Shown piece by piece: positions 19,343 to 58,053 of a stretch of DNA of 64,000 nt. This DNA comes from a phage. Location of the stretch: the sequence record OZ336094.1, one strand, 5' to 3'. Every line of letters starts with the position of its first letter. The stretch's first letter is position 1. Under the pieces are notes generated by a model that saw only the letters and a program-made list of their open reading frames with translations, did not search any database and was not told where the DNA came from. Both the position numbers and the translations under genes were made by a program.

Positions 19343-20446
19343 TTAAAGTAGACCACGTTTAACAGTTTGAATCATACCATCTTCAAGAGATTGCACTTCT
19401 TGAATGTAATCAATACGAGCAGCACGGGCTTCAGTGTTGATTCGGTTAGTTTCTTCCAACATTTTAACTAAGTTTTCTTGATCACGACGCAATGTTTCAA
19501 TATCCAATACTTGACGATTAGCAAGTTGTGTAGCTTCAATTTGGTTTTGTGCAGCCAGATCACTACCCATTGCAATAGCAGCATTAAATTCATTCAGTAC
19601 ATTGTTCTGTGTATCGGCTGCTTTCTTCTGGCGTAGACTTTCAATATACATAGAAAAGTTTGCAGAGTAAGCAGGAATAACATTATTCACAATATTACGG
19701 GCTGATCGCATCAAACTTGCAGATACTTTCTGCATACTTTGTACACGTGGCCCCATCTGAACACACAGTAAACGCAAGGCTTTCAGATCTGCAATACGAA
19801 TTTCAAGCAGATCCATAGTATCACGAGTACGTTGACGCTCTTCTACTTCATTTTCAGGTAGTGTATTAAGGCGAACTTCTTCTTTTTCATAAGTAGCTGT
19901 TAGAAGCTCTATATCCCTGTTTAAGCTAAGAGCATATTTTGCAATAGCTTCCTCTAAACGTTGCAGATATCGTAAAGAATCTTCTTCTTTTTTCAAGTCT
20001 GTTTGGAGTGTCTTTACCAAACCTTCAATACGGTTATTGATGGTGTCAAATTCTCCAAACAAATCTTCTTTCATACCTAAAACTTTCTTAACTAGTTTAC
20101 CTAAACCTTTAGATTGTTTAATAGAGTTAGGATCAAGTTGCTTTGCTTGCTTAATAAGCGCAGTTAAACGTTCACTCATTTCATCTCCCTGAGATGAACG
20201 CTGGTGTTTAAGCACTTCAGCATTAAGGTTACGAAGAGTAAGTCCTGCATCAGCACCAACCTGTTCAATCTCTTCACGAGACATTGGAGGCAGCATTTGT
20301 ACAGGGCGTGCAACAGCAGGGGCATATACAGGGCTTGCATCCATAGCACTTGGAGCAAACAAAGACTTACTTTTTTCTGTTGTTGCCGTGAATACACTCA
20401 TTTCAGACGGTTTGCTTTTTACGGCACTGATAAAAGGACTGGACAT
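19343..20446 (-). CDS. TelA-like toxic-anion-resistance family protein (coiled-coil)
   Basis: 367 aa, size and predicted coiled-coil character of TelA; context with TerD, vWA and TerC; call is context-weighted. Confidence 0.4.
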   Translation of the reverse strand: MSSPFISAVKSKPSEMSVFTATTEKSKSLFAPSAMDASPVYAPAVARPVQMLPPMSREEIEQVGADAGLTLRNLNAEVLKHQRSSQGDEMSERLTALIKQAKQLDPNSIKQSKGLGKLVKKVLGMKEDLFGEFDTINNRIEGLVKTLQTDLKKEEDSLRYLQRLEEAIAKYALSLNRDIELLTATYEKEEVRLNTLPENEVEERQRTRDTMDLLEIRIADLKALRLLCVQMGPRVQSMQKVSASLMRSARNIVNNVIPAYSANFSMYIESLRQKKAADTQNNVLNEFNAAIAMGSDLAAQNQIEATQLANRQVLDIETLRRDQENLVKMLEETNRINTEARAARIDYIQEVQSLEDGMIQTVKRGLL

Positions 20447-20514
20447 TCAATTTCCTCCATATTCTTTAGTAAATGGTGATACCTCTGTACCACCATCATA
20501 ACACAAGTTAAGTA

Positions 20515-21366
20515 TTAAACAAACATATCTAAATAATTTGTAGTAATAAATGCTCCATCTGCTTCCAGATTAACATAACCCGTGGTATTAGTAGTTAAGA
20601 AATCCAGATCGAAGGACTCTTTAACACCCCGTACCTCAACACGAGAGATATCGAATACAGGTAGTGTAACAGCCTCTTCGTGCAATACCGTACCTTTGTA
20701 GGTTGCCTTAATGATAAACTTGATATTACCTGTTCCAGCATCATATAAAACACTTTCAAACCCTTTGAGAGTATATTTATCACCAGAAGTGAAGTGCAAA
20801 GTTGCTTTGTTTACAGTACGTTTCTTACGAGGAGTTCCTTTCACACGTTTATGATCACTACGTTTTTTGTATTTAGGAATGAATACAAACGATACACTCT
20901 CAAGAAAGGTATCAACATCAAGGATTTTAATATCCTCTGTTGCAGCAAATTTTGAAGTCGTTGCATCAAAATGCTTTTCCCTGCGATCATACATAAAGAT
21001 ATCAAACCGATCTTCTAAATCAAACAAATTATGTATTTTAATTTCAGAATGCTTGCGCATTGCAGCAACCTTGAACTCTTCAAAACGTGGGTGTTCTACA
21101 AGTTCTTCAAGTTTTACACCAAAGACAGTATATTGCTTCGAAGTCTTTTCTGGTGTTGGCATTACAGAAGCATAGTCCCCGATTGCGCTCTTAAAGCAAA
21201 ATTGTTCTTGACCTGTATTTTTACCAACGAATTTACAGTATTCGTCATTGTGCATACTTTCCTTAGTAGTACCAACAAACTCAAAACCATCTTTATTCTT
21301 CTCAAGAATTTCTTGATTAAAAATCCAACCTTCCAGGCGATACACTTTACCAACTTCTAGTTTCAT
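20515..21366 (-). CDS. Hypothetical protein, 283 aa
   Basis: Track ORF; no motif recognised. Confidence 0.45.
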   Translation of the reverse strand: MKLEVGKVYRLEGWIFNQEILEKNKDGFEFVGTTKESMHNDEYCKFVGKNTGQEQFCFKSAIGDYASVMPTPEKTSKQYTVFGVKLEELVEHPRFEEFKVAAMRKHSEIKIHNLFDLEDRFDIFMYDRREKHFDATTSKFAATEDIKILDVDTFLESVSFVFIPKYKKRSDHKRVKGTPRKKRTVNKATLHFTSGDKYTLKGFESVLYDAGTGNIKFIIKATYKGTVLHEEAVTLPVFDISRVEVRGVKESFDLDFLTTNTTGYVNLEADGAFITTNYLDMFV

Positions 21367-21401
21367 CTGTTTCTCCTTCTTATTTAATCTGTATTAAATT
21401 A

Positions 21402-21992
21402 TTAACGACGACGTGAGCTACTAAAACTACGTTTCGACGAAGAATAACTTTTCGAAGACTTACTATAAGAGCTAATAGGGCTTGAGTAAGACTTACGAGC
21501 AGAGTAATCACTATTCACTTTTGTTGTTGACGGGCGTGAATACGTTTGTACACTTTGCTGCTTAATTGTGTTTTGTTTAGTGGTTGTATATGTATTCCCT
21601 TGTTTATCATAAAAACGATGCTTTTGTGTTGTATATGCTTTACTATTAGTTGTAGGAGCAGCGTTGTTATTGATAATTGTTGTATTGCTACCGCCATCTC
21701 TATAACCACCACCGCCACTATTACCACTCAACATATGACCAAGAAGCATACCTGTAGCAAACTCACCTACACCAGAAGAACCACTACCGCCTCCTTGCAC
21801 AACAACTGTTGAAGGTTGTGCAGGTGCTGCTTGAACAACTTGAGGTGCAGGCTGATTTACATATTGTTCATCTACCATCTGATTTGGTGTTTGTTGGTAA
21901 CGTTGATTTTGTACATTTTCAGAATCATCACAACCTACCAGCAATGCACTACCTAAAACAACTGCAACAATAAAAGATTTAATGTTTTTCAT
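21402..21992 (-). CDS. Putative lipoprotein with Ser/Tyr-rich low-complexity C-terminus (start refined)
   Basis: Signal peptide with lipobox LVGC (MKNIKSFIVAVVLGSALLVGCDD); RBS gagagg; Gly-rich and SYSS-repeat tail. Confidence 0.5.
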   Translation of the reverse strand: MKNIKSFIVAVVLGSALLVGCDDSENVQNQRYQQTPNQMVDEQYVNQPAPQVVQAAPAQPSTVVVQGGGSGSSGVGEFATGMLLGHMLSGNSGGGGYRDGGSNTTIINNNAAPTTNSKAYTTQKHRFYDKQGNTYTTTKQNTIKQQSVQTYSRPSTTKVNSDYSARKSYSSPISSYSKSSKSYSSSKRSFSSSRRR

Positions 21993-22185
21993 TTGTAACC
22001 CTCTCATTTAAAGTCTCAACACAATTTTTAAAATCCCTAGAGAAACAATACATCTGTTCTCCGTTCCTGTTGATAGTAATTGTATGGTTATCAATATATG
22101 TTGTCAAGATAAAAATCAAACAAAACAACCCTAGAGCAAAACAAATATTTTCAAACAGAATCCAAAGAACACGTAAAACCACCAT
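21979..22185 (-). CDS. Hypothetical small membrane protein, 68 aa
   Basis: Hydrophobic N-terminus; RBS gaggtg; overlaps start of lipoprotein gene. Confidence 0.35.
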   Translation of the reverse strand: MVVLRVLWILFENICFALGLFCLIFILTTYIDNHTITINRNGEQMYCFSRDFKNCVETLNERVTNEKH

Positions 22186-22199
22186 CAGATCACCTCAAC

Positions 22200-22219
22200 A
22201 AAGCCCCCGAAGGGGCTTA
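22200..22219 (-). terminator. Hairpin (AGCCCC-CGAA-GGGGCT) downstream of the TerC-like gene
   Basis: GC stem with tetraloop; weak T-tail. Confidence 0.4.
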
Positions 22220-22224
22220 ATGAA

Positions 22225-23202
22225 TTAAGCAACAGTCTGGTCTTCTTTTTCAGGGAAGATTAAACTTGCAACAACACCCAACCCAAGAGTACCTAACACA
22301 ATATACATACTGATCGTCGGATCAATGTGTGCTGGCAGGAAACTGACTTTTGCGTGCAGAGTTTCTGCAAACGGGTGATACATCAGTTTTACACCCACAA
22401 ACACCAGGACTACGATAACTGCTTTCTCCAGATGAACCAAATACTTCAGTGCAACACTAAGAACAAAGAACAGAGCACGTAAACCTAAGATTGCACAGAG
22501 CATCGAAGAGAACACCAGTAGAGGTTCTTGTGTCACTGCAATTACTGCTGGAACAGAGTCTACTGCAAAGATTACGTCAACCATTTCCATTACAAACACA
22601 CAAACCAGAGCCGGAGTTGCTACACGAACACCATTTTTGATTGTGAAGAACTTCTCACCATCCATCTGATCAGATACAGGGAACAGCTTACGAACAATGC
22701 GAGTAGCCCAGTGTTTAGAGTAATCAACTTCTGCATCATTATCTCCAGCGAATACCATTTTAGCCGCACAGAAAAGGATGACAGCACCGAAGAAGATATT
22801 AACATACCAGCCCAAACTCAACAAGTAAGTACCTACTGCTACAAACACACCTCGGAAGACAATCGCACCTGCAATACCCCAAAGTAGAATCTTGTGCTGC
22901 AAGTGTGTGCTTTTAATACCAAAACTTGCGAAGACTGCCACAAATACTACTAAGTTATCTACAGAAAGAGATTTCTCCAACACATACCCACTCAAAAACA
23001 AGCTCGCAAAATCAGCACCGTGTTGGAAGTATACAAAACCATAGTAGGCTAATGATACCCCAATCCAGAAAATTGACCAGCCAATTGCAGATTTAAATGA
23101 AATTTCTTTGTTTTCTCTGTGTCCAAAGAAGTCAATACAAATCGACAAGACTAAAATACCCACTAAAACAACCACATCAATAATTGGGAAACCCAGTTGC
23201 AT
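22225..23202 (-). CDS. terC: TerC-family integral membrane protein
   Basis: 325 aa with multiple TM segments; motif EKSLSVDNLVVF matches the conserved TerC signature. Confidence 0.6.
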   Translation of the reverse strand: MQLGFPIIDVVVLVGILVLSICIDFFGHRENKEISFKSAIGWSIFWIGVSLAYYGFVYFQHGADFASLFLSGYVLEKSLSVDNLVVFVAVFASFGIKSTHLQHKILLWGIAGAIVFRGVFVAVGTYLLSLGWYVNIFFGAVILFCAAKMVFAGDNDAEVDYSKHWATRIVRKLFPVSDQMDGEKFFTIKNGVRVATPALVCVFVMEMVDVIFAVDSVPAVIAVTQEPLLVFSSMLCAILGLRALFFVLSVALKYLVHLEKAVIVVLVFVGVKLMYHPFAETLHAKVSFLPAHIDPTISMYIVLGTLGLGVVASLIFPEKEDQTVA

Positions 23203-23219
23203 TCTTTTCTCCTCTTTAA

Positions 23220-23238
23220 TGCGGAGGACAATCCTCCG
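23220..23238 (-). terminator. Hairpin (GCGGAGGA-CAA-TCCTCCGC) between an upstream small gene and terC
   Basis: 8-bp stem; no strong T-run, may be an RNA-stability or attenuator element. Confidence 0.35.
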
Positions 23239-23279
23239 CTCTATGTCTTATACTATAAACTGTTTTTAAAGAAAGTCAA

Positions 23280-23528
23280 CTAGTTCAGTTCTGTAATTTT
23301 AAGTTTATCTTCTTTGTTAATGATAGGGAAAGCTACAGCATCACCTACGTCATCAATAAAGCAAATAGCAATACCACCTTCCACTTTGCTAATCTGACCA
23401 TTAAAGGCGTGATACGGGGCAGGAACTTGATCTCCATCTTCAAGGAGAATAGCCTCGTAAACCTTGCCGATAGTACAATCACGAGTGTTTCTAAATTTTT
23501 CAAGCACTTCAACATTTACTTTACGCAT
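23280..23528 (-). CDS. Hypothetical protein, 82 aa
   Basis: Track ORF. Confidence 0.4.
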   Translation of the reverse strand: MRKVNVEVLEKFRNTRDCTIGKVYEAILLEDGDQVPAPYHAFNGQISKVEGGIAICFIDDVGDAVAFPIINKEDKLKITELN

Positions 23529-23542
23529 ATAAAAATCCTCTC

Positions 23543-23749
23543 TTATTTGTTAGATTGAAAGATACCACGAAGTACCGCAAGAATGAACGTCACACAGACT
23601 ACACTCCAAAACGTTACAGGAACATGATGCCAGTCTAAGCCGATAATGTCAATCATATAATTGTATGCTAAAAGCAGTAGCCAACTAGGGATTAACACAA
23701 TCAAGAACACAACAATAAAACAACCTAATACTGCTAAAACACCTGCCAT
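23543..23749 (-). CDS. Hypothetical membrane protein, 68 aa
   Basis: Two predicted TM helices. Confidence 0.4.
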   Translation of the reverse strand: MAGVLAVLGCFIVVFLIVLIPSWLLLLAYNYMIDIIGLDWHHVPVTFWSVVCVTFILAVLRGIFQSNK

Positions 23750-23758
23750 ACTTTCTCC

Positions 23759-24475
23759 TTATTTCAGTTTGTAAACAATTACATTTAAACCTTTGTTTAC
23801 TAGAGTTTCTTCGATCATAAGTTTTACAATATTCCAAGAACCTCCAGCCAAACCACAACCAAGCATTGGTAAACCTACAATTTTACCGCCTGAAGATACA
23901 ACATCGTCTCCCATACTATCTAACGCATTGTAGATAGCTTCATAATTCAGGTCACGCTTACCTTCCTCACGACGACTATAACCATATTGTCCATATAAAT
24001 TATAAATTGTCAAATTGTTTTCTGTATACTTGGTAAACGTACCTAATTTTTTATAATCACCACGTTTAGTGGCACAATCTGCTTTAAACGCACCAGGCCA
24101 CTTACTTTTAATTTTTGGTGCAATACCACTACCCATAGTGCAAAAACAGTTACAGCAGTGTGCTATAGCGTCTATATCGCCTCTCTCGGCTGCTGCTAAA
24201 AGATCACCGTATACCTCAATGATACCTGCTGGATAACTTGTTACAATTTCATCTTCCCAGTACATTTTCTCTACACCACCGATCAGTGCAAAGTTTTGTG
24301 TAATGCGATCATCAATATAGTTAAGACCTGAAACATACACAGCATATTCATCCTGTGCTGTAATACCTTGTACACGAATTCTTAAGACACCATCTTTATC
24401 TGTTGCTACACGCCCAAAATCTTTTTCTGTAATATTGGTGATAGGATCTCCGAAAGTCATTACTTTATTAGACAT
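23759..24475 (-). CDS. Macro-domain protein (ADP-ribose binding/processing), start refined
   Basis: Segments DAIAHCCNCFCTMGSGIAPKI and GLPMLGCGLAGGSW resemble macro-domain motifs (VNAAN..GGGV..AI and FP.I.TG.YG.P); internal ATG with RBS aaagggga overlaps PRTase stop. Confidence 0.5.
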   Translation of the reverse strand: MSNKVMTFGDPITNITEKDFGRVATDKDGVLRIRVQGITAQDEYAVYVSGLNYIDDRITQNFALIGGVEKMYWEDEIVTSYPAGIIEVYGDLLAAAERGDIDAIAHCCNCFCTMGSGIAPKIKSKWPGAFKADCATKRGDYKKLGTFTKYTENNLTIYNLYGQYGYSRREEGKRDLNYEAIYNALDSMGDDVVSSGGKIVGLPMLGCGLAGGSWNIVKLMIEETLVNKGLNVIVYKLK

Positions 24476-25325
24476 AATAATCCCCTTTAACATTAGATTT
24501 GTTGATAATGTTGCTTTCAAAAAATTGACGTAGGAAATCAAAGTTCTCTTTATATTTTTCAATATTATTGTAGCCTTCTGCAAGGCAACCAAAGAACAGT
24601 TGTTCTACATAATACAAAGGAAGCTGTGAAAGTGCAATTTTAAAATCAACTTCGCTTTGACTCATTAGATACTTAATAGGACGAACCAAACATTTAGCAT
24701 CAGTTTCTTGCTTAATCATTTTAATAAAAGCTGCCAGGTTATTGATGTAGTTGAAGTTAAGTGCAGCTTCGGTGTTGGCTTCTGTACCTTCATACTTTGC
24801 AAAGTACAGGAAAAACGTATCGTTTTCAACACCTTCTTTGTCTAAAATTTCAATAAGTTTTTCTTCGTGCGTTCCTGTAATATTAACATCATCAATGAAA
24901 ATCAGAGTTTTATTACCCCAGAAATCACGATTGATAGAGAAAGTGTCACCATCGATCAAAGCCTTACGATCTTCTTTGCTAAGAAATCCATAATCATTGA
25001 TATAGCTCACTTTACGATGAACGATATCCCACTCCACGGCTTTACCTCCTTTGATAGAGATTAGGTAGTTGAGGTGATCTACAAAATGTTCAGATAACAC
25101 TGTAGCTGCATTTTTCACATAGTTATATGGAGATGGAATAACAACAAAACTTTCATTTACCAGTCGTTCTTCATACTTGGAAAAGAAACTTTCAGCCAGA
25201 ATGCGCCCCATTCTTTTTGCTGCCTGGTTACTACCAAACTTTAGCTTGGAATAATCTGCAATGTTAAATTTTGCTTCCTTCAGGTTAGTAAAAGTATTAG
25301 CAAAATGTTGAATTTGATTACGCAT
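24468..25325 (-). CDS. Phosphoribosyltransferase (PRTase)-domain protein
   Basis: PRPP-binding-like motif TLIFIDDVNITGTHEE. Confidence 0.55.
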   Translation of the reverse strand: MRNQIQHFANTFTNLKEAKFNIADYSKLKFGSNQAAKRMGRILAESFFSKYEERLVNESFVVIPSPYNYVKNAATVLSEHFVDHLNYLISIKGGKAVEWDIVHRKVSYINDYGFLSKEDRKALIDGDTFSINRDFWGNKTLIFIDDVNITGTHEEKLIEILDKEGVENDTFFLYFAKYEGTEANTEAALNFNYINNLAAFIKMIKQETDAKCLVRPIKYLMSQSEVDFKIALSQLPLYYVEQLFFGCLAEGYNNIEKYKENFDFLRQFFESNIINKSNVKGDYYV

Positions 25326-25974
25326 TAATAAGTTCCTCTTTTTTAAGTTTAGCCAACAAGTCTTCTGGATTAATAATATGACAGAACTTCATCCCTATGT
25401 CAACAGCTTTTCCATCATAAATCAAACTATCTCCAACGTGTAAAATCTCCTCTGGTGCGAGATCAAACGTTACCATTTCATCAAAAGAGAGTTTAAAAAA
25501 CCTGGGATCTGGTTTACACAAGCAAAACTCATCAGAAAAATGCATAAAATCGAATGGTAATTTTGTCAAGCCAGAATATACAGCTAAGAAACTACCAGGT
25601 ACAAAATTGGTATTGCTCTTAATACTCAAAGAATAGGTTGAACTTAGCTCTTCCAACTTCTTGCAAAGTTCAGGATTCAATGTTGGAGGATGTTTTATAA
25701 ACATTGCTAAACAGTCTCTTTTTAACCCATCCACTTTATCAAGATCAATGTTCAAACGAGTAGAAAGTGTTACCCAAGCATCCTTAGACGTTCCACAAAT
25801 GCCTTTTTCTGCTTTTAAATCCAGGAGAGTTTTTACCTCTTTATATACGGTAGCTGCTTCTACCTCAGAACAAGAGGCATACTCGGCAATAACCTTGTTG
25901 CGTTCTTCTGCATACAAAGGATTAGCAGTAATAAGAGTATTCCATACATCAAAAGAAATATGCTTAACAGTCAT
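25318..25974 (-). CDS. HAD-superfamily hydrolase-like protein (start refined)
   Basis: N-terminal ISFDVWNTLI (HAD motif I-like) and C-terminal VGDSLIYDGKA (motif IV GDxxxD); motif I lacks the second Asp. Confidence 0.45.
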   Translation of the reverse strand: MTVKHISFDVWNTLITANPLYAEERNKVIAEYASCSEVEAATVYKEVKTLLDLKAEKGICGTSKDAWVTLSTRLNIDLDKVDGLKRDCLAMFIKHPPTLNPELCKKLEELSSTYSLSIKSNTNFVPGSFLAVYSGLTKLPFDFMHFSDEFCLCKPDPRFFKLSFDEMVTFDLAPEEILHVGDSLIYDGKAVDIGMKFCHIINPEDLLAKLKKEELINA

Positions 25975-25976
25975 TT

Positions 25977-26132
25977 TTAATCCTCCGTCCAAAAGAATAT
26001 CATCTGCTTAATTTTATTGATCTCTTGATGTAGTAACTTTCCAGCATGTGATTGATCTTTAATATTGACAGCAAGAATTTCAAGCTCCGTTAGTTTTTCT
26101 TGGATAGCTTTATATTCATCATCTGTAAGCAT
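25977..26132 (-). CDS. Hypothetical small protein, 51 aa
   Basis: Hand-translated ORF (MLTDDEYKAIQEKLTELEILAV...), RBS aggggaag; below track size cut-off. Confidence 0.35.
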   Translation of the reverse strand: MLTDDEYKAIQEKLTELEILAVNIKDQSHAGKLLHQEINKIKQMIFFWTED

Positions 26133-26381: not shown

Positions 26382-27542
26382 TTAGTAAGAACGACCACCA
26401 AACACATACTCTGTGTAGTTTTTACGTTCTTTGTTTTTAATAACAACTTCAATGTTGTTACCTTTATCATCGGTGAACATAAAGTGATAACCGTCACCAC
26501 CCATTGTACGAATGTGTTTTTCATCATACGTTAGCAAGATACGGTCTACACCCCAGTAGTAGTCACCTTCTTCATCTTTATCTTCTACAGTAACGATCCC
26601 TTCCATTTCAGGAAGATGCTCTTCTCCTGACTTATGATCTACAGCTACAACATAACGATTACCGCTAAACAAACCTTGTGCTGTCATACCGTCAATATCG
26701 GTATCTGACGAAACATCTCCTGTACGATCTACACCGTTAACTTTCAGAAGTTTAACTTCTTTTGCAGCATAGCGGTGTTCAGTAATACTGATACCCATTA
26801 ATGCAAGTGCATCAGAGAATTTGTCATTAGGGTAACGGTTAAGTTCTTCTACTAATGACTGAACAATATCAAAGTTCAAATCCACGGAGAGATTATAAAG
26901 CGTTTCAAAATCTGGTAAGAAGGCTTTGTTCTCCAGATTTTTAGCCAGATAATCATCCATAGTAGCTTTAGGTAGTTTCTTATAGCTAAAACTGTAGAAA
27001 ATACGGCTAGGACGATTACGCAAAAATTCTGATACATAACCATCATTTTTAGTCAATACAAACAGTTTGTCGTAGCCACCAACACCATCCAGCAGGGTAA
27101 GCAAACCATCTTGTGCATCTTTTTCAGCATACAGTTTATCAAATTCATCGATCATAATCATCACAGGTTGTGTGATTTTAGACATAAAGTTGATAAAGCC
27201 TTCACCATTAAAAGCACTACCGATAGAAATAGTAGGAATACCCATTTCACGAAGAGCAGAAGACAGCATTTTAGCTTGCAAAGTTTTACCGCTACCTTTC
27301 GTACCCTCAAGGAGAACACCTGTGTTTTTACCTTTGCGGCTAAGGAACGTCTTGATAATACGTTCTGATTTATCATCAGTATCACCGTATGTTACTGAAG
27401 GGACTTCCATATCGTTTTTAGGATACAGGAAGAACTCGCCACTTTGAGTAACACCTACACCAAAAGTTCCTGCTGGAATTTCTTCAATATCTGTACCAGA
27501 CTTCTGACGCAGGAAGATTTGATTGCCGAATACTGTAAACAT
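26382..27542 (-). CDS. AAA+ ATPase (classical-clade-like), paralog A
   Basis: Walker A GTKGSGKT, Walker B IMIDEFDK, sensor-1 LTKN, SRH-like LRNRPSR; paralogous to 42038..43165. Confidence 0.6.
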   Translation of the reverse strand: MFTVFGNQIFLRQKSGTDIEEIPAGTFGVGVTQSGEFFLYPKNDMEVPSVTYGDTDDKSERIIKTFLSRKGKNTGVLLEGTKGSGKTLQAKMLSSALREMGIPTISIGSAFNGEGFINFMSKITQPVMIMIDEFDKLYAEKDAQDGLLTLLDGVGGYDKLFVLTKNDGYVSEFLRNRPSRIFYSFSYKKLPKATMDDYLAKNLENKAFLPDFETLYNLSVDLNFDIVQSLVEELNRYPNDKFSDALALMGISITEHRYAAKEVKLLKVNGVDRTGDVSSDTDIDGMTAQGLFSGNRYVVAVDHKSGEEHLPEMEGIVTVEDKDEEGDYYWGVDRILLTYDEKHIRTMGGDGYHFMFTDDKGNNIEVVIKNKERKNYTEYVFGGRSY

Positions 27543-34924: not shown

Positions 34925-35290
34925 TTAAACGTTTTCTAAATCTTTTAAGGCATTACCCAACGTTAGAACAATAACATCGTTTGCTGCCTCTTCCCCATTG
35001 ATATTGGTGAAATTTGGTGTGACAAAAGTAACCATATAAAACTCGTCCACCTGGAAGACAGCAATAACACCATCCATCTTAACATCTTGACGAAAGGAAA
35101 AACCAATCATCTTCTCTTGCAAAGGCATATCCCCTTCCTTCATTACCGCTAGGGAGTTTTCAGGAATGTTATATTTATCTGATCCGATGTAGATGTACGT
35201 AATGTTATCTTTATCGTGATGATACAGGGTTGCTTTTTCCATATCTAAACCTGACAGATCAAATACGTTAATTTCTTGTGTAGTCTTCAT
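34925..35290 (-). CDS. Hypothetical protein, 121 aa (start refined to ATG with RBS ggagga)
   Basis: Track ORF 34925..35365; internal Met preceded by ggaggatattt. Confidence 0.45.
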   Translation of the reverse strand: MKTTQEINVFDLSGLDMEKATLYHHDKDNITYIYIGSDKYNIPENSLAVMKEGDMPLQEKMIGFSFRQDVKMDGVIAVFQVDEFYMVTFVTPNFTNINGEEAANDVIVLTLGNALKDLENV

Positions 35291-35654
35291 AAATATCCTC
35301 CCAAATCCAATAATCATCTGTGTAAGTAGGATGCCTTTTATCCCACTCTGCTCTAGCCCAAGCAACCGCTGCTACCAACACATCACCATGACAAGGTTGA
35401 GGTGCGCAGAAGCAAACTAAGTCTTTCCCTTCTAATTCTAACAAATCCTCAAGAGTGATTTTACCACAACGAATTTGTTCCCACAACCACTCTTTATATC
35501 TTTGTATAGTTGATCCTCGTGGTTCATCATCCTTTAACTTAAAAGGATTTGCAAACTTTGAGGCTTTTAACCCCATATGAGGCATAGCTCTGCCAATGTA
35601 CACTGCACCTTCAGGTATTACTTTACCTAAGTGGTAAAAATTTAATACTTTCAT
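35268..35654 (-). CDS. DUF4326-like protein
   Basis: Segments YIGRAMPHMGLKASKFANPF and CFCAPQPCHGDVL match my recollection of the DUF4326 signature; start refined to Met 9 adjacent to upstream stop. Confidence 0.4.
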   Translation of the reverse strand: MKVLNFYHLGKVIPEGAVYIGRAMPHMGLKASKFANPFKLKDDEPRGSTIQRYKEWLWEQIRCGKITLEDLLELEGKDLVCFCAPQPCHGDVLVAAVAWARAEWDKRHPTYTDDYWIWEDIYEDYTRN

Positions 35655-43165: not shown

Positions 43166-43181
43166 GTAAGCCAGCAAATAA

Positions 43182-43206
43182 AAACCCGCTCCGGCGGGTT
43201 TTCTTG
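43182..43206 (+). terminator. Intrinsic terminator (ACCCGC-TCCG-GCGGGT + T-run)
   Basis: GC stem followed by tttcttgtatt. Confidence 0.55.
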
Positions 43207-43239: not shown

Positions 43240-44412
43240 ATGACAGCACCAAAATCATGGGAACAATATAAAGAAGAATTAACACCCCTTGCTAAAAATC
43301 GCAATATTCAAATCCTGGGTTATGTTGGTGAATGGAAAGGGAACAAGACTAAACTTAAGCTATCTTGCCCTAAACATGGAGAGTGGAACACCACGAACAT
43401 TAATGATTTTAAGAAGGGACGTGGTTGTCCTATCTGTTCTGGTAAGAAGCCGTTAACATGGGAAACAGAATTGCCGATCTTGGAAGAGATAGCACAGAAG
43501 AGGGGGTATCAGGTGTTAGGGTACGTGGGAGAATGGAAAGGGAATAAAACAAAACTTGATTTGTTGTGTCATTGTGGTAATAAATGGGATACTACAAGTA
43601 TTAACAATTTTAAACGTGGTAGCGGTTGTCCACAATGTAAGAGGGAGAGACAAACAATGTCCGACGATCAACATATTGCAGATTTCTTTTCTACAGGGGA
43701 ATTTAAGGAAGGCACTATCTTCACCAATACAGGGAAACGTAACAAGCGTGATACAGTATGGATGGTTGAGTGTCCTGTTTGCTCCCATGATGAATATGTT
43801 CAAGCAGGTGTTTGTGATGGTAAATTTTACTCTGCAGGACATAACCTTAAACAAGGGTATATTCCGTGTCGTTGTGGGAACTATCAGTATACAGAAGACC
43901 AGATCACCTATAGGGTAAAAAAGGAAGTAGAAGGGAAAGGGTATGTCTGGGTAGATTGGATTACCAAACCCTCTTCTATAGGTAAGTTTAAATATCTTTG
44001 TCTTGTGCATGGTGAGCAGATAGGGAGTGCTCGTAATTTATTAAGCCTCGGTCAAGGTTGTCCACAGTGTGCTGGTCATAATCAACAGCAATTATATATT
44101 AATATTGTTAAAGATAATGATATTATAGTTGCTCTTAAGTTTGGTATATCTAAAGATAGCGATAGACGATTAAACGGTCAAAATAGCCGTAATCTGTTTT
44201 TTATGGAGCGTATTTGTTTATATGATTTTAGCACAGTGAAACAATGTAGGGCTGCTGAAAGAGCTATAAAGAAAAAATTAAAAACTGGTATTTTAACGGC
44301 AAGAGAGTTGAAAGATGGTTATACAGAAACAGTAAGTGTTTCTGATTTGGAAAATCTTCAAAAAATTATTACACAATATGGTGGCAAATTAGTATACAGT
44401 AAGGAGATGTAA
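43240..44412 (+). CDS. Zinc-ribbon repeat protein with C-terminal GIY-YIG-like (T5orf172-type) domain; possible nuclease / homing-endonuclease-like
   Basis: Repeated modules LGYVGEWKGNKTKL..C..G.W.T..IN.FK.G.GCP.C; C-terminus LYINIVKDNDIIVALKFGISKDSDRR resembles GIY...YIG spacing. Confidence 0.35.
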   Translation: MTAPKSWEQYKEELTPLAKNRNIQILGYVGEWKGNKTKLKLSCPKHGEWNTTNINDFKKGRGCPICSGKKPLTWETELPILEEIAQKRGYQVLGYVGEWKGNKTKLDLLCHCGNKWDTTSINNFKRGSGCPQCKRERQTMSDDQHIADFFSTGEFKEGTIFTNTGKRNKRDTVWMVECPVCSHDEYVQAGVCDGKFYSAGHNLKQGYIPCRCGNYQYTEDQITYRVKKEVEGKGYVWVDWITKPSSIGKFKYLCLVHGEQIGSARNLLSLGQGCPQCAGHNQQQLYINIVKDNDIIVALKFGISKDSDRRLNGQNSRNLFFMERICLYDFSTVKQCRAAERAIKKKLKTGILTARELKDGYTETVSVSDLENLQKIITQYGGKLVYSKEM

Positions 44413-44964
44413 ATGCGGATTACTGATAAGTATGTGTTCTTCTTCTCGGCAAAAGATGAATTTAGCAACTGGTATCTATCATCTTTTATTGAACCTTTAG
44501 CTCCCAAGTATAATAATTCTATTACAAGTTCTGTTGAATTTACTTGTGTGGAACAATATATGATGTGGAGAAAAGCATGTTTGTTTTATGATTACAACAT
44601 TGCATCTTCTATTTTAACCGGAGATCTAAGATATACAGGAGAAAAAGAACAGGCATATTATAAGCGACTAGGTAGATTAGTTAAAGATTACGATGAAGCT
44701 ACTTGGACTTCTTTACGGGAGAAGATTGTCAAGCGTGGTTTGTATCTTAAATACACACAAAATGAAGATCTCAAAAATAAACTTATAACCTACGCAGATA
44801 AGGAGTTCGTAGAGGCAAGCCCTTATGATTCTATTTATGGTATCAAAATGGGGATGTGGGATCGTGATGTGGAAAATAAGGACTGTTGGAAAGGACAAAA
44901 TCTTTTAGGAAAATGGCATACAGACCTTGCTGTTTATCTAAAAACACAATCTGATATTTCCTGA
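44413..44964 (+). CDS. NADAR (YbiA-like, DUF1768) domain protein
   Basis: FFFSAKDEFSNWYLSSF, EQYMMWRKACLF and SIYGIKMGMWDR align with YbiA motifs (FYSTSDDYGDFSNF, EHYFQAQKF, DAYWGDGGHG). Confidence 0.55.
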   Translation: MRITDKYVFFFSAKDEFSNWYLSSFIEPLAPKYNNSITSSVEFTCVEQYMMWRKACLFYDYNIASSILTGDLRYTGEKEQAYYKRLGRLVKDYDEATWTSLREKIVKRGLYLKYTQNEDLKNKLITYADKEFVEASPYDSIYGIKMGMWDRDVENKDCWKGQNLLGKWHTDLAVYLKTQSDIS

Positions 44965-45180
44965 TATTTTGAAAATTTTTATTTTTATAAAAAGGGGTGT
45001 GGGTTTCATGTACGGAAATTCACCCTCTGCACAGTATATCCAGAGTAAGTAGTATTCTACACCCTGTTAATAAAGTATTTAATTTGTTTGTTGGACTATG
45101 GTATCTGATCTTTAAAAGACATACTATCTCTTAACTACTACTTATAACAGAACAGTAAAATCATTTTTATAAAAAGTACA

Positions 45181-45382
45181 AAATTATTTAAAGTTTTTAC
45201 AGATTTTTGGGTACAAATTTTGAAAATGAAAAGTTCAAGTTTGGTCAAAATTATTTAAAGTTTTTGTACGTATTTCTGTCCAGATTTTGAAAATGAAAAC
45301 TTCAATTTTTTAAAAATTCCCCAGTTTATTTAAAGTTTTTTTGCCTTTTTCCGTAGAAAAATCAAAAATGAAAAGTTCAATT
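45181..45382. repeat. Three imperfect direct repeats of about 66-76 bp, each with TATTTAAAGTTTTT and TTGAAAATGAAAAGTTCAA blocks
   Basis: Seen directly; conserved blocks with 34-37 nt spacing; ORF-free AT-rich DNA. Confidence 0.7.
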
Positions 45383-45401
45383 TCGTGTTTTTATAGGTGT
45401 G

Positions 45402-45515
45402 TTAATGAGAATCATTTTCGTTTGTAAATGAGAATCATTATCATTTAACTATGTAAGTGATAATCATTCTCAGTAAGAGAATGAGAATCATTAGCAAATG
45501 AGAATTTTCTCATTT
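45402..45515. promoter_or_regulatory. Array of five or more palindromic AATGA-GAA-TCATT boxes (Fur-box-like)
   Basis: AATGAGAATCATT x3, GTGATAATCATTCTC, and perfect palindrome ATGAGAATTTTCTCAT; one base from the Fur core AATGATAATCATT. Confidence 0.5.
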
Positions 45516-45776
45516 AGAGAATAACGCGCAGGGGCGGTGTTTGTCTCGCGCTCCCGTGTCCCCTCGCCATACAATAAGAATAGCATAACCAACAACAAAA
45601 GCAAGCGATTATTTTTATCTTTACATTTCTTTACAAATTTATTTTAGACGAGCTACCGGCGATCAACCTTCCAACCAGTGCCCCCTGGTATGTTAGCCCC
45701 GCCTTTACGCCGTGGGGGTGGCGTTTCCTCTTCTGTATGTAAAACAGTATAAGCCCGATCCCTGGGCTTGTCAAGA

Positions 45777-46043
45777 TTATTTTTTGTTTTCTTGCCAGGA
45801 TAGGACACCTAACCAAAAATACATGTCGCCCCGCGCCCCTGGCGGGATCTTGCTTTCCCCGCCGCCACTGCAAGCCCATAGATAACCATTAGCGAACGGA
45901 TCAAAATGATCTATTTCTTCCACCTTATGATCGCCCAGGTTGAGAACGGTTTCAACCTTTAAGCCCGTTGCGCTTGCTACCTGGTGCACCGTGCCGCCTT
46001 GCCAGCCTAATGAGTGCATGAGGTGTAGAGTAGTATTTGTCAT
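45777..46043 (-). CDS. Hypothetical protein, 88 aa, in a GC-rich segment
   Basis: Track ORF; RBS aaaggg; local GC well above genome average; adjacent out-of-frame ORF 45631..45879 suggests possible frameshifted remnant. Confidence 0.3.
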   Translation of the reverse strand: MTNTTLHLMHSLGWQGGTVHQVASATGLKVETVLNLGDHKVEEIDHFDPFANGYLWACSGGGESKIPPGARGDMYFWLGVLSWQENKK

Positions 46044-46156
46044 GGTATCGCCCTTTCTTTGATGTGCGCCCTGGTTGGCGCGGTAGAAAGATAATAGCCC
46101 TTTCCTTTATAGATAGCAAGCAAAAAAAAAGAAATGAAAAAAAGATTAAAAAAGGG

Positions 46157-46185
46157 GTTGACGTTCCTCACCTGGTAGCGTATTA
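46157..46185 (+). promoter_or_regulatory. Sigma70-like promoter TTGACG-N17-TATTAT
   Basis: Good -35/-10 with 17-nt spacer; no canonical ORF immediately downstream. Confidence 0.4.
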
Positions 46186-46313
46186 TTCATCTTGTCGAGG
46201 GGGGCGAGGCACAACGACAATAAACAAAAGGAGGGCGCAATGTAGGACGGGCAAAGGTGAGGATCTCCATAATCCACCGTCACAATAACATTACTTATAA
46301 AAGGTTGATAACG

Positions 46314-46409
46314 ATGATCAAGAAAGAAAACAGCTTGACGGTTGGAACGATTAACGCTATCATTCTTGCCGTTCCATTTTGGATTGTAGTTGCGGTTATT
46401 ATTTTTTAA
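46314..46409 (+). CDS. Possible small hydrophobic peptide, 31 aa
   Basis: Hand-translated MIKKENSLTVGTINAIILAVPFWIVVAVIIF; weak RBS. Confidence 0.2.
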   Translation: MIKKENSLTVGTINAIILAVPFWIVVAVIIF

Positions 46410-46417
46410 AAATATTC

Positions 46418-46473
46418 TTGACAACGTTTTTTAATCTGATAAGATGTATCACATAGGGCGGCAATAGTGCCGC
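46418..46473 (+). promoter_or_regulatory. Promoter + 5' stem-loop cassette (TTGACA-N16-TAAGAT; hairpin GCGGCA-ATAG-TGCCGC)
   Basis: Member of repeated cassette family; followed by purine-rich RBS and ATG at 46498. Confidence 0.55.
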
Positions 46474-46497
46474 TCATAACAGAAGAGAGAAATAATC

Positions 46498-56346: not shown

Positions 56347-56548
56347 CCTAAATAAAGATGATAGCTTTTACCTATCAAGAACGTTCACCGAAAAAAGTGA
56401 ATAGATCGCGGTATCGAGCTAATCAAGGAGCAGATGAACAACCATACCATGAAGATCATAAGGCGCTTACAGCGTGTTTTAGACCGCTTATTTTTAATTT
56501 CTTCATGCAACTATCTGGCAAAAACAGCCTTTTTCTCATCTTTCCTCT

Positions 56549-56626
56549 TAAATGATAATCATTCTTATTTATAGCTGATTATTTATGCAATAAACTGCAT
56601 AATGCAATAATGATAATCATTCTTAA
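56549..56626. promoter_or_regulatory. Two exact AATGATAATCATT palindromes (Fur-box core) in an ORF-free AT-rich region
   Basis: ttaaATGATAATCATTcttat and caataATGATAATCATTcttaa. Confidence 0.5.
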
Positions 56627-56986
56627 CTTAAGACCATCTAACTTATAAAATAATAAGTTATCTAACTAAATTAAAGCTAATTATCTTACTTTTATTTATA
56701 ACATACTGTTACTATCTTATTGATAACTTTATATTAAACAACAATAATCAATGTAAATCATTACTAAGCTAACTATAATCTATCTAACCCTTAAAACTAT
56801 AACTATAATCTATCGAATTGTTGCACAAAGTAACTATTAAATTGTTAGTAACATTGCTAAATAATTAATATCCTATCTATTTATGATCTAATCTTTACCT
56901 TCCTATTTATCACCTAACTAATCATTCCATATAGTAATCATTTCATACAATAACTATAACAAGAAATATAATTCGCAAGCGTATCA

Positions 56987-57182
56987 TTAGCAGCCTATGC
57001 CGGACACATAGGCGGCTAATAATAACGCAACTACACACCCCACATAATAACCATCACCGATAGTCATTATTTGTGCTTATGTAGCTTGCAACAACTGCAA
57101 GCGCAACAATATACAATTGTATATTGTATCCCTTACATTGTTGCGGTGCGTTATTATTAGCTAATGTTTAGAACATTGGCTA
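56987..57182. repeat. Cluster of three long palindromes in a roughly 1.4-kb non-coding region
   Basis: TTAGCAGCCTATG-N7-CATAGGCGGCTAA; perfect 20-bp palindrome CAATATACAATTGTATATTG; TAGCTAATGTT-TAG-AACATTGGCTA. Confidence 0.7.
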
Positions 57183-57465
57183 TAATATAAGCTAAATAAT
57201 AAGCTATACAATAATAAACATCGTGAATAATGATGCTGATGATCATAATGCGCCACCTTCCAGGGGGGCGCTATGTGAACACAAAGAAATCTTTCTTGTC
57301 AAGAAAAATATTAACACTATTGCGCAAAATTATTTATATATGAATAGATGGTTTTTCATACTATTGCCCCCATATAGCCTATCATTTGTTGAGCCTACTT
57401 TCTTAAAAGCGCAATAAATCAGAATTATCTTGATTTTTAGGGCGTTTTATAGTACAGAAAATATG

Positions 57466-57487
57466 CAAATGATAATCATTATCAGCT
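57466..57487. promoter_or_regulatory. Near-consensus Fur box (gcAAATGATAATCATTATCagc)
   Basis: 17 of 19 positions match GATAATGATAATCATTATC. Confidence 0.5.
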
Positions 57488-57639
57488 ATCTTCCACGGGT
57501 GGCACTATTTCACGCCAGATCATTTCATTTGGCAAGGTGTATATAGATGTTTAGACTTGCCAAGCCATTGATTTACTTAGAATTTATCTGTTTTGTTGTG
57601 AGTAGTACCTTTCTTGCTCAGAAAATAATCAAAAGTCTT

Positions 57640-57672
57640 ATAAGTCATTGAATGATAATGCAAATGATAATT
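57640..57672. promoter_or_regulatory. Tandem GATAAT-type hexamer array (gAATGATAATgcAAATGATAATTATTCTCATTg)
   Basis: Overlapping Fur-like hexamers. Confidence 0.45.
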
Positions 57673-58053
57673 ATTCTCATTGATATTTGAGGGGGACGGT
57701 CGGCAGAAATCGGGGGGCGCTGAAAATCGCGTTAAGCACCTCTCGCAAGCGAGCAGTATTTTGCGGCAAGTTATTGATATTATTGACTTTACGCTTATGA
57801 AAAGGGGGGTGTGTCGAAATAAATCGGGTATACCGGAAAATTTTTGTGGTATAGATATTTATTTGTCTATATTATGTACAAAGGGGTGTGTTAAAAATAA
57901 TAGGTATATATAGAATAATTGATAGGGAAATCCTATACTAATCCCTATACTAATTCCTCCATTAATGATGTTCCTATGTTACTGTTCTTGTAATAGATGA
58001 AAAGACGCTGTATGATGTGTGGCATGAAACGTAAACTTATAAAGGAGTCTGAT

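Follow-up and report, generated by a model that had tools for sequence, protein, structure and literature searches.

A NADAR gene of Escherichia phage Paula as the predicted counterpart of the anti-DarTG1 factor AdfN-Bas60

Phage Paula (Stephanstirmvirinae, Justusliebigvirus) carries a gene, PAULA_0095, whose product is very probably a stand-alone NADAR ADP-ribosylglycohydrolase, an orthologue of AdfN-Bas60 that reverses the modification of guanine by DarT1 in infection. The function of this group of orthologues is already known, having been published in 2025, and conceptually nothing is new here. What is gained is a firm, literature-backed name, AdfN (anti-DarTG1 NADAR), for a gene that the Paula record labels 'conserved hypothetical protein'. 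The window, that is, the whole stretch of DNA that was analysed, is 64,000 nucleotides long (record OZ336094.1), and the 4-kb stretch around the gene has 100% identity with Escherichia phage Paula LR865361.1, on the opposite strand.

The gene, its relatives and its neighbours

The NADAR gene and the features that surround it are listed below.

26382-27542, minus strand: AAA-type ATPase gene, 386 aa
42038-43165, plus strand: AAA-type ATPase gene, 375 aa, a paralogue of the preceding one, 15 kb apart from it
43181-43202, no strand assigned: G+C-rich hairpin terminator AAAACCCGCTCCGGCGGGTTTT, from a terminator scan; terminators 021/022 of the Paula record, on both strands
43240-44412, plus strand: CapR/T5orf172 gene, 390 aa, with three CapR-type zinc-ribbon repeats and a T5orf172 (GIY-YIG-like) domain
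44401-44406, plus strand: Shine-Dalgarno sequence AAGGAG, from sequence inspection, 6 nt 5' of the NADAR ATG and within the final codons of the gene before it
44413-44964, plus strand: NADAR (AdfN-Bas60-type) gene, PAULA_0095, 183 aa, from the open reading frame, Pfam, orthologues and fold

The reading frame begins at its first in-frame start codon, an ATG. Its translation is matched by the Pfam NADAR profile (PF08719) with an E-value of 3.8e-36, the match running from residue 13 to 168 (profile positions 9-154 of 163), which is far beyond chance. An earlier note, made from the letters alone, had placed the protein in the YbiA/NADAR family on the strength of full-length likeness and three motifs. 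The reading frame and profile confirm this, and the motifs are found at residues 17-20 (FSNW), 47-55 (EQYMMWRKA) and 142-147 (YGIKMG); in the HMM search that the note had named as a check, the match scored 125.3 bits, where the gathering cut-off is 35.1. Two further profiles match the protein: PHROG 1017, whose function is unknown (E 1.4e-49), and NCBIfam TIGR02464, 'riboflavin biosynthesis intermediates N-glycosidase', which passes its cut-off of 73.7 with 110 bits.

Close relatives are encoded by two of the BASEL phages, PaulScherrer (Bas60) and JohannJBalmer (Bas62). The proteins bas60_0111 and bas62_0106 are each identical to the Paula protein at 180 of 183 positions (98%), and bas60_0111 has the same length. 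The differences from the two fall at positions 62, 96, 126 and 178, none of which is a conserved column among 57 homologues; relative to Bas60, the Paula protein has N62S, A96D and T126A, all three at variable positions. The published AdfN-Bas60 was equated with bas60_0111 because this is the sole NADAR protein detected in the Bas60 genome; bas62_0106 is likewise the sole one detected in Bas62. The likeness to AdfN-Bas60 extends over all 183 residues and includes the genus Justusliebigvirus and the place of the gene after a CapR/T5orf172 gene.

The same gene carries a variety of labels in other records. It is 'DNA methyltransferase' in phage Eryne, where the protein is 100% identical, 'GTP cyclohydrolase II' in SF1-1 and AAT-1, 'putative YbiA-like N-glycosidase' in the BASEL annotation, and 'hypothetical' elsewhere. 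The N-glycosidase and cyclohydrolase names can be traced to the TIGR02464 match, which passes its cut-off. For the record named Campylobacter phage A145, in which the encoded protein is 97.8% identical, the host label looks doubtful.

A tblastn search with the NADAR protein returned 727 places, spread over 725 phage records; nearly every record therefore has a single copy. The clade ranges over large myoviruses, including the Herelleviridae of Staphylococcus, Listeria, Bacillus and Enterococcus, as well as jumbo phages. Relatives with 40-45% identity are also encoded on two phage-like metagenomic contigs of 310 kb and 456 kb (L005, 5001-5480; L007, 5001-5477). One of them lies near NAMPT/NAPRTase and nucleoside deoxyribosyltransferase genes; the other directly follows a CTP_transf_like nucleotidyltransferase gene and is near an anti-Pycsar Apyc1-like gene. 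The pairing of NADAR with NAD+ salvage on these contigs is an association noted by Iyer et al. (2022).

In Paula, the stop codon of the upstream gene (TAA, 44410-44412) abuts the NADAR ATG. Because of this, and because AAGGAG lies 6 nt upstream and the pair stands behind a terminator, the two genes are probably expressed as one unit, and translation of the NADAR gene may well be coupled to that of its neighbour. The hairpin at 43181-43202 separates the two-gene unit from the AAA-ATPase gene. The upstream product matches Pfam CapR in three stretches (E 8.8e-44), T5orf172 (E 6.4e-4) and PHROG 681, 'endonuclease' (E 2.2e-88), and is probably, from these matches, a DNA-binding protein or an endonuclease. 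It is here that the locus differs from that of AdfN-Bas60: the protein has 390 residues in Paula and 467 in Bas60, the longer form containing an insertion of 69 aa, roughly one zinc-ribbon repeat, that Paula is without. In the Phapecoctavirus ESCO13, gene sizes and positions indicate the same order of an AAA-ATPase gene, a long gene in the CapR position and a NADAR gene; the difference is that two extra small ORFs stand ahead of the NADAR gene.

The AAA-ATPase gene has a paralogue in the window, with 47% identity over the first ~254 residues and divergent C-terminal parts. Relatives of the pair are labelled 'FtsH-like protease' or 'ATPase or Zn metalloprotease'; Pfam finds only the ATPase domain.

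Family placement, fold and active site

The NADAR superfamily contains several types, and the Paula protein can be placed among them by its architecture and by one diagnostic catalytic position. The NADAR domain starts near residue 8 of 183, which leaves no room for an N-terminal extension. No ART or DarT domain was found in the flanking genes, where the CapR/T5orf172 gene, the AAA ATPase gene and the ORF-poor stretch beyond the NADAR gene were examined. The diagnostic position is occupied by Glu134, neither Asp (D171 of the E. coli C7 protein) nor His. The missing extension, the lack of an adjacent ART and the Glu together argue that the Paula protein is, as judged by its sequence, a Glu-type member of the stand-alone 'NADAR family', outside the DarG1, T4 gp30.3 and YbiA groups. 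The gene is an orphan NADAR gene of a lytic phage, with no cognate toxin.

An assignment to the DarG1-type antitoxins was rejected. DarG1 (E. coli C7; G. lovleyi, 8BAT) is of the same superfamily and catalyses an identical reaction on what DarT1 produces, and its protection of the cell can be replaced by AdfN-Bas60. However, the Paula protein has neither the DarT1 neighbour nor the N-terminal extension, and has Glu134 where DarG1 has Asp. When a profile of the clade was searched against solved structures at E <= 1, the DarG1-type chain (8BAT) was absent, and only 8BAU and 2B3W were returned.

The T4 type was likewise rejected. AdfN-T4 (gp30.3) resembles the Paula protein in being an orphan phage NADAR that counters DarTG1, but there is no pairwise similarity between the two (BLASTP E 1.6; hhalign probability 11.6%), and the T4 type carries His where the Paula protein has Glu134. 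AdfN-T4 also requires a Tevenvirinae context for full activity.

E. coli YbiA shares the fold and the Glu-type active site, and hydrolyses guanine-ADP-ribose in vitro. It differs in that its similarity to the Paula protein is marginal, that it gives no protection against DarT1 in vivo, and that it belongs to a LexA-controlled host operon. The YbiA type was not adopted: the TIGR02464 cut-off is passed, yet the solved NADAR of Phytophthora nicotianae (8BAU) is closer than YbiA both in a single-sequence phmmer comparison (E 8e-12 and 48.7 bits for 8BAU; E 0.11 and 15.7 bits, which is marginal, for YbiA 2B3W) and with the clade profile (E 3.9e-37 and 131 bits; 69 bits). Evidently, the TIGR02464 model captures Glu-type NADARs in general, and a match to it is no proof of a function in riboflavin metabolism.

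8BAU is thus the nearest solved relative. It is a stand-alone 'NADAR family' enzyme that hydrolyses guanine-ADP-ribose. It is 27% identical to the Paula protein, eukaryotic and without a link to phage defence, and the phage protein has short insertions relative to it near residues 28-40 and 70-80.

An AlphaFold2 model of the Paula protein, made from an alignment of the 57 homologues, has a mean pLDDT of 96.7 and a pTM of 0.90. With Foldseek, its best match in the PDB is 8BAU, the P. nicotianae NADAR with ADP-ribose (TM 0.76, E 6.5e-10). The only other significant match is E. coli YbiA 2B3W (TM 0.69-0.75). The Paula protein is, in this model, of the NADAR alpha+beta fold.

The active site of 8BAU was described by Schuller et al. 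(Mol Cell 2023). The pyrophosphate of the ligand is shielded by K75 and R79, the distal ribose is held by E43 and E125, and K50 is the counterpart of K95 in the E. coli C7 NADAR, a residue that is essential and coordinates phosphate; in the C7 protein, E88Q and mutations of K95 and D171, at the equivalent positions, abolish activity. In a HMMER alignment to 8BAU, whose SEQRES numbering is that of the paper plus 2 and was corrected before the residues were mapped, E43, K50, K75, R79 and E125 align with E47, K54, K84, R88 and E134 of the Paula protein. Four of these, E47, K54, K84 and E134, do not vary among the 57 homologues, and the fifth, R88, shows at least 90% conservation. The conservation of all five binding and catalytic residues indicates that a Glu-type NADAR active site is intact in the Paula enzyme. 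Together with the profile and the fold, these residues confirm the assignment to NADAR.

The counter-defence function and its alternatives

Direct evidence on function comes from the orthologue. Johannesman et al. (Nat Commun 2025; PMC11825919) identified a distinct NADAR in Bas60, Bas61 and Bas62, named it AdfN-Bas60, and found that it groups with bacterial NADARs that are neither associated with DarT nor of the YbiA type. AdfN-Bas60 neutralised DarT1 in uninfected E. coli, without other phage factors, and its ectopic expression allowed RB69, T5 and Bas25 to reach full titre on DarTG1 hosts. T5 on DarTG2, which modifies thymine, was not rescued. In the accessible text of that study, AdfN-Bas60 was tested by ectopic expression. 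According to Cihlova et al. (2024), guanine is freed of ADP-ribose in vitro by all four NADAR subtypes that occur in E. coli strains and phage T4, but neither YbiA nor T4 gp30.3 protects cells against DarT1.

The earlier note had proposed that the protein reverses guanine ADP-ribosylation by DarT-type toxins and so serves in counter-defence. For AdfN-Bas60, which is 98% identical, exactly this has been shown, and the Paula copy can be expected from its sequence to have the same activity.

The following course of events would explain the function of the gene in Paula. In an infected E. coli host that carries DarTG1, DarT1 would place ADP-ribose on the N2 of guanine in the phage DNA, and replication of the modified DNA would be blocked. 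The NADAR enzyme, probably expressed early as a unit with the product of the upstream gene, would bind the pyrophosphate of the ADP-ribose through K54, K84 and R88 and place the distal ribose between E47 and E134. Cleavage of the N-glycosidic bond between ribose and guanine would then restore unmodified DNA and allow replication to resume. At the level of residues, this scheme is an analogy, based on homology to 8BAU and on the mutants of the E. coli C7 NADAR.

Since the TIGR02464 cut-off is passed, and since NADARs of jumbo phages adjoin genes of NAD+ salvage, other or additional substrates are possible. One alternative, which is improbable, is that the main substrates are soluble derivatives of ADP-ribose, such as immune signals, toxic products of NAD+ breakdown or by-products of RNA repair, and that the removal of ADP-ribose from DNA is a side activity. 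Such a role was proposed by Iyer et al. (2022) for most phage NADARs, on the grounds that large myoviruses carry NADAR, Macro, SLOG and Nudix together. The macro and DUF4326 proteins encoded in the same genome would fit this, as would the relatives that adjoin NAMPT/NAPRTase and CTP_transf_like genes on the 310-kb and 456-kb contigs. However, the neighbours of the Paula gene are the CapR/T5orf172 and AAA-ATPase genes and no NAD+ salvage gene is among them, a soluble substrate has so far been demonstrated for no NADAR of the clade, and the orthologue has a published, direct in vivo phenotype against DarT1/DarTG1.

Another idea takes the protein for a housekeeping N-glycosidase of the YbiA kind, whose task would be to break down reactive intermediates of the riboflavin pathway. 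This idea is implied by the BASEL annotation and, in other records, by the name 'GTP cyclohydrolase II'; it draws on the TIGR02464 score and on the presence at the catalytic position of Glu (E134), a trait of the YbiA class. Nevertheless, it is very unlikely. YbiA is far more distant than the non-YbiA 8BAU in both sequence comparisons, Johannesman et al. group AdfN-Bas60 with non-YbiA NADARs, the scanned ORFs of the window include no riboflavin genes, and in vivo DarT1 is neutralised by the 98% identical orthologue but not by E. coli YbiA. Least probable of all is a non-catalytic action, in which the NADAR protein binds and blocks a component of host defence. A phage NADAR that counters defence without enzymatic activity is mentioned in the discussion of Johannesman et al., who contrast AdfN with it and cite Carabias et al. 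(2024), a study of Retron-Eco1. Against such an action in Paula, the catalytic and ADP-ribose-binding residues are all conserved under strong constraint in the clade, and the orthologue rescues several unrelated phages as well as uninfected cells from DarT1, which fits the repair of a product.

The reversal of DarT1-dependent guanine modification is, therefore, the favoured function, and it may be only part of what the enzyme does. A 2026 report states that 'NADAR family' and YbiA enzymes act not only on ADP-ribosylated guanine but also on ADP-ribosylated cytosine, whether in DNA or in RNA, an ability that DarG1 and the T4 NADAR lacked. Because the Paula protein is placed in the Glu-type 'NADAR family', it is tempting, if rather doubtful, to think of the Paula/Bas60 enzyme as a broad-spectrum eraser of nucleic-acid ADP-ribosylation, which together with a macro protein similar to Tk.4/AdfM would cover both DarTG1 and DarTG2. 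If so, the phage would also be protected against guanine- and cytosine-targeting transferases beyond DarT1.

Macro and DUF4326 genes, and the ORF-poor stretch

Two further genes had been named in the earlier note as companions of NADAR in a counter-defence tool-kit, and both domains are real by Pfam. They are listed here with the genes around the macro gene.

19346-20446, minus strand: TelA, in a Ter-like cluster
22228-23202, minus strand: TerC, in the same cluster
23759-24475, minus strand: macro-domain protein, 238 aa (Pfam Macro E 2.1e-7, 31.3 bits, cut-off 22)
24468-25325, minus strand: ComF-like PRTase (PF15610), in the Ter-like cluster
25318-25992, minus strand: HAD hydrolase, with a match just below the Pfam cut-off
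35268-35654, minus strand: DUF4326 protein, 128 aa (Pfam DUF4326 E 1.5e-21, 77.3 bits, cut-off 25)

The three genes do not form an operon, because the macro and DUF4326 genes are at distances of 9 and 20 kb from the NADAR gene and on the opposite strand, which the note does not mention; the three are spread over 21 kb.

The domain of the macro protein is homologous to T4 Tk.4/AdfM (30% identity, E 9e-18), with ~85 extra N-terminal residues that are absent from Tk.4, and it matches the PADLOC DarG model (E 1.1e-13). Its best solved relatives in a sequence search of the PDB are macrodomains of the TARG1/OARD1 class and SCO6735. T4 Tk.4 was named AdfM in a 2025 preprint, where it was shown to be the anti-DarTG2 factor of T4.

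The setting of the macro gene complicates this. The start of the gene overlaps the end of the PRTase gene by 8 nt, and the PRTase gene overlaps the HAD ORF by another 8 nt, so that an HAD-PRTase-Macro operon with translational coupling lies inside a TelA/TerC cluster (19346-25992, minus strand) of a lytic phage. The arrangement is reminiscent of the Ter-linked 'nucleoside-like metabolite' neighbourhoods that Anantharaman, Iyer and Aravind reportedly described in 2012, and suggests a small-molecule (phosphoribosyl) pathway. The NARP3 paper was considered as an account of the PRTase-macro cluster and provides no explanation for it. The macro protein is thus, by sequence, a candidate anti-DarTG2 factor, while its context points equally well to a metabolic role. 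The tool-kit idea is supported only in part, given this HAD-PRTase-TelA/TerC setting and the distance between the genes. For the DUF4326 protein, the domain is real, but the gene is unlinked and its role is backed only by a published bioinformatic prediction, namely that DUF4326 processes terminal phosphates on the ribose of ADP-ribose products (Iyer et al. 2022).

Directly 3' of the NADAR gene is an ORF-poor stretch of 1.5 kb (44965-46497). It contains three direct repeats of ~70 nt (45163-45383) and a cluster of Fur-box-like sites (45401-45495) with the core AATGAGAATCATT. The sole ORF in the G+C-rich segment of ~750 nt that lies 3' of the cluster is a small annotated one on the minus strand (45777-46043). 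Neither this ORF nor the small ORFs on either side of the stretch belong to a Pfam family. ESCO13 too has an ORF-poor gap, and the minus-strand ORF that comes after it is equal in size. Searches of the whole window with Rfam at gathering thresholds and with a tRNA scan gave zero matches, so that the stretch does not correspond to any known RNA. The G+C-rich part (45520-46300) had no megablast match in E. coli genomes, and therefore this part is not an obvious host-derived insert.

The Fur-like sites extend beyond this stretch. With up to three mismatches to the E. coli Fur-box consensus GATAATGATAATCATTATC, there are six matches in the window as against 0.01 expected, and all are confined to two ORF-poor regions, 45401-45495 and 56540-57700. 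A search of the literature turned up no account of Fur boxes in lytic phages. The second region contains a near-perfect palindromic site, GCAAATGATAATCATTATC, at 57465-57483, and the sequence of the sites suggests that they may be bound by host Fur or by a phage protein of similar specificity.
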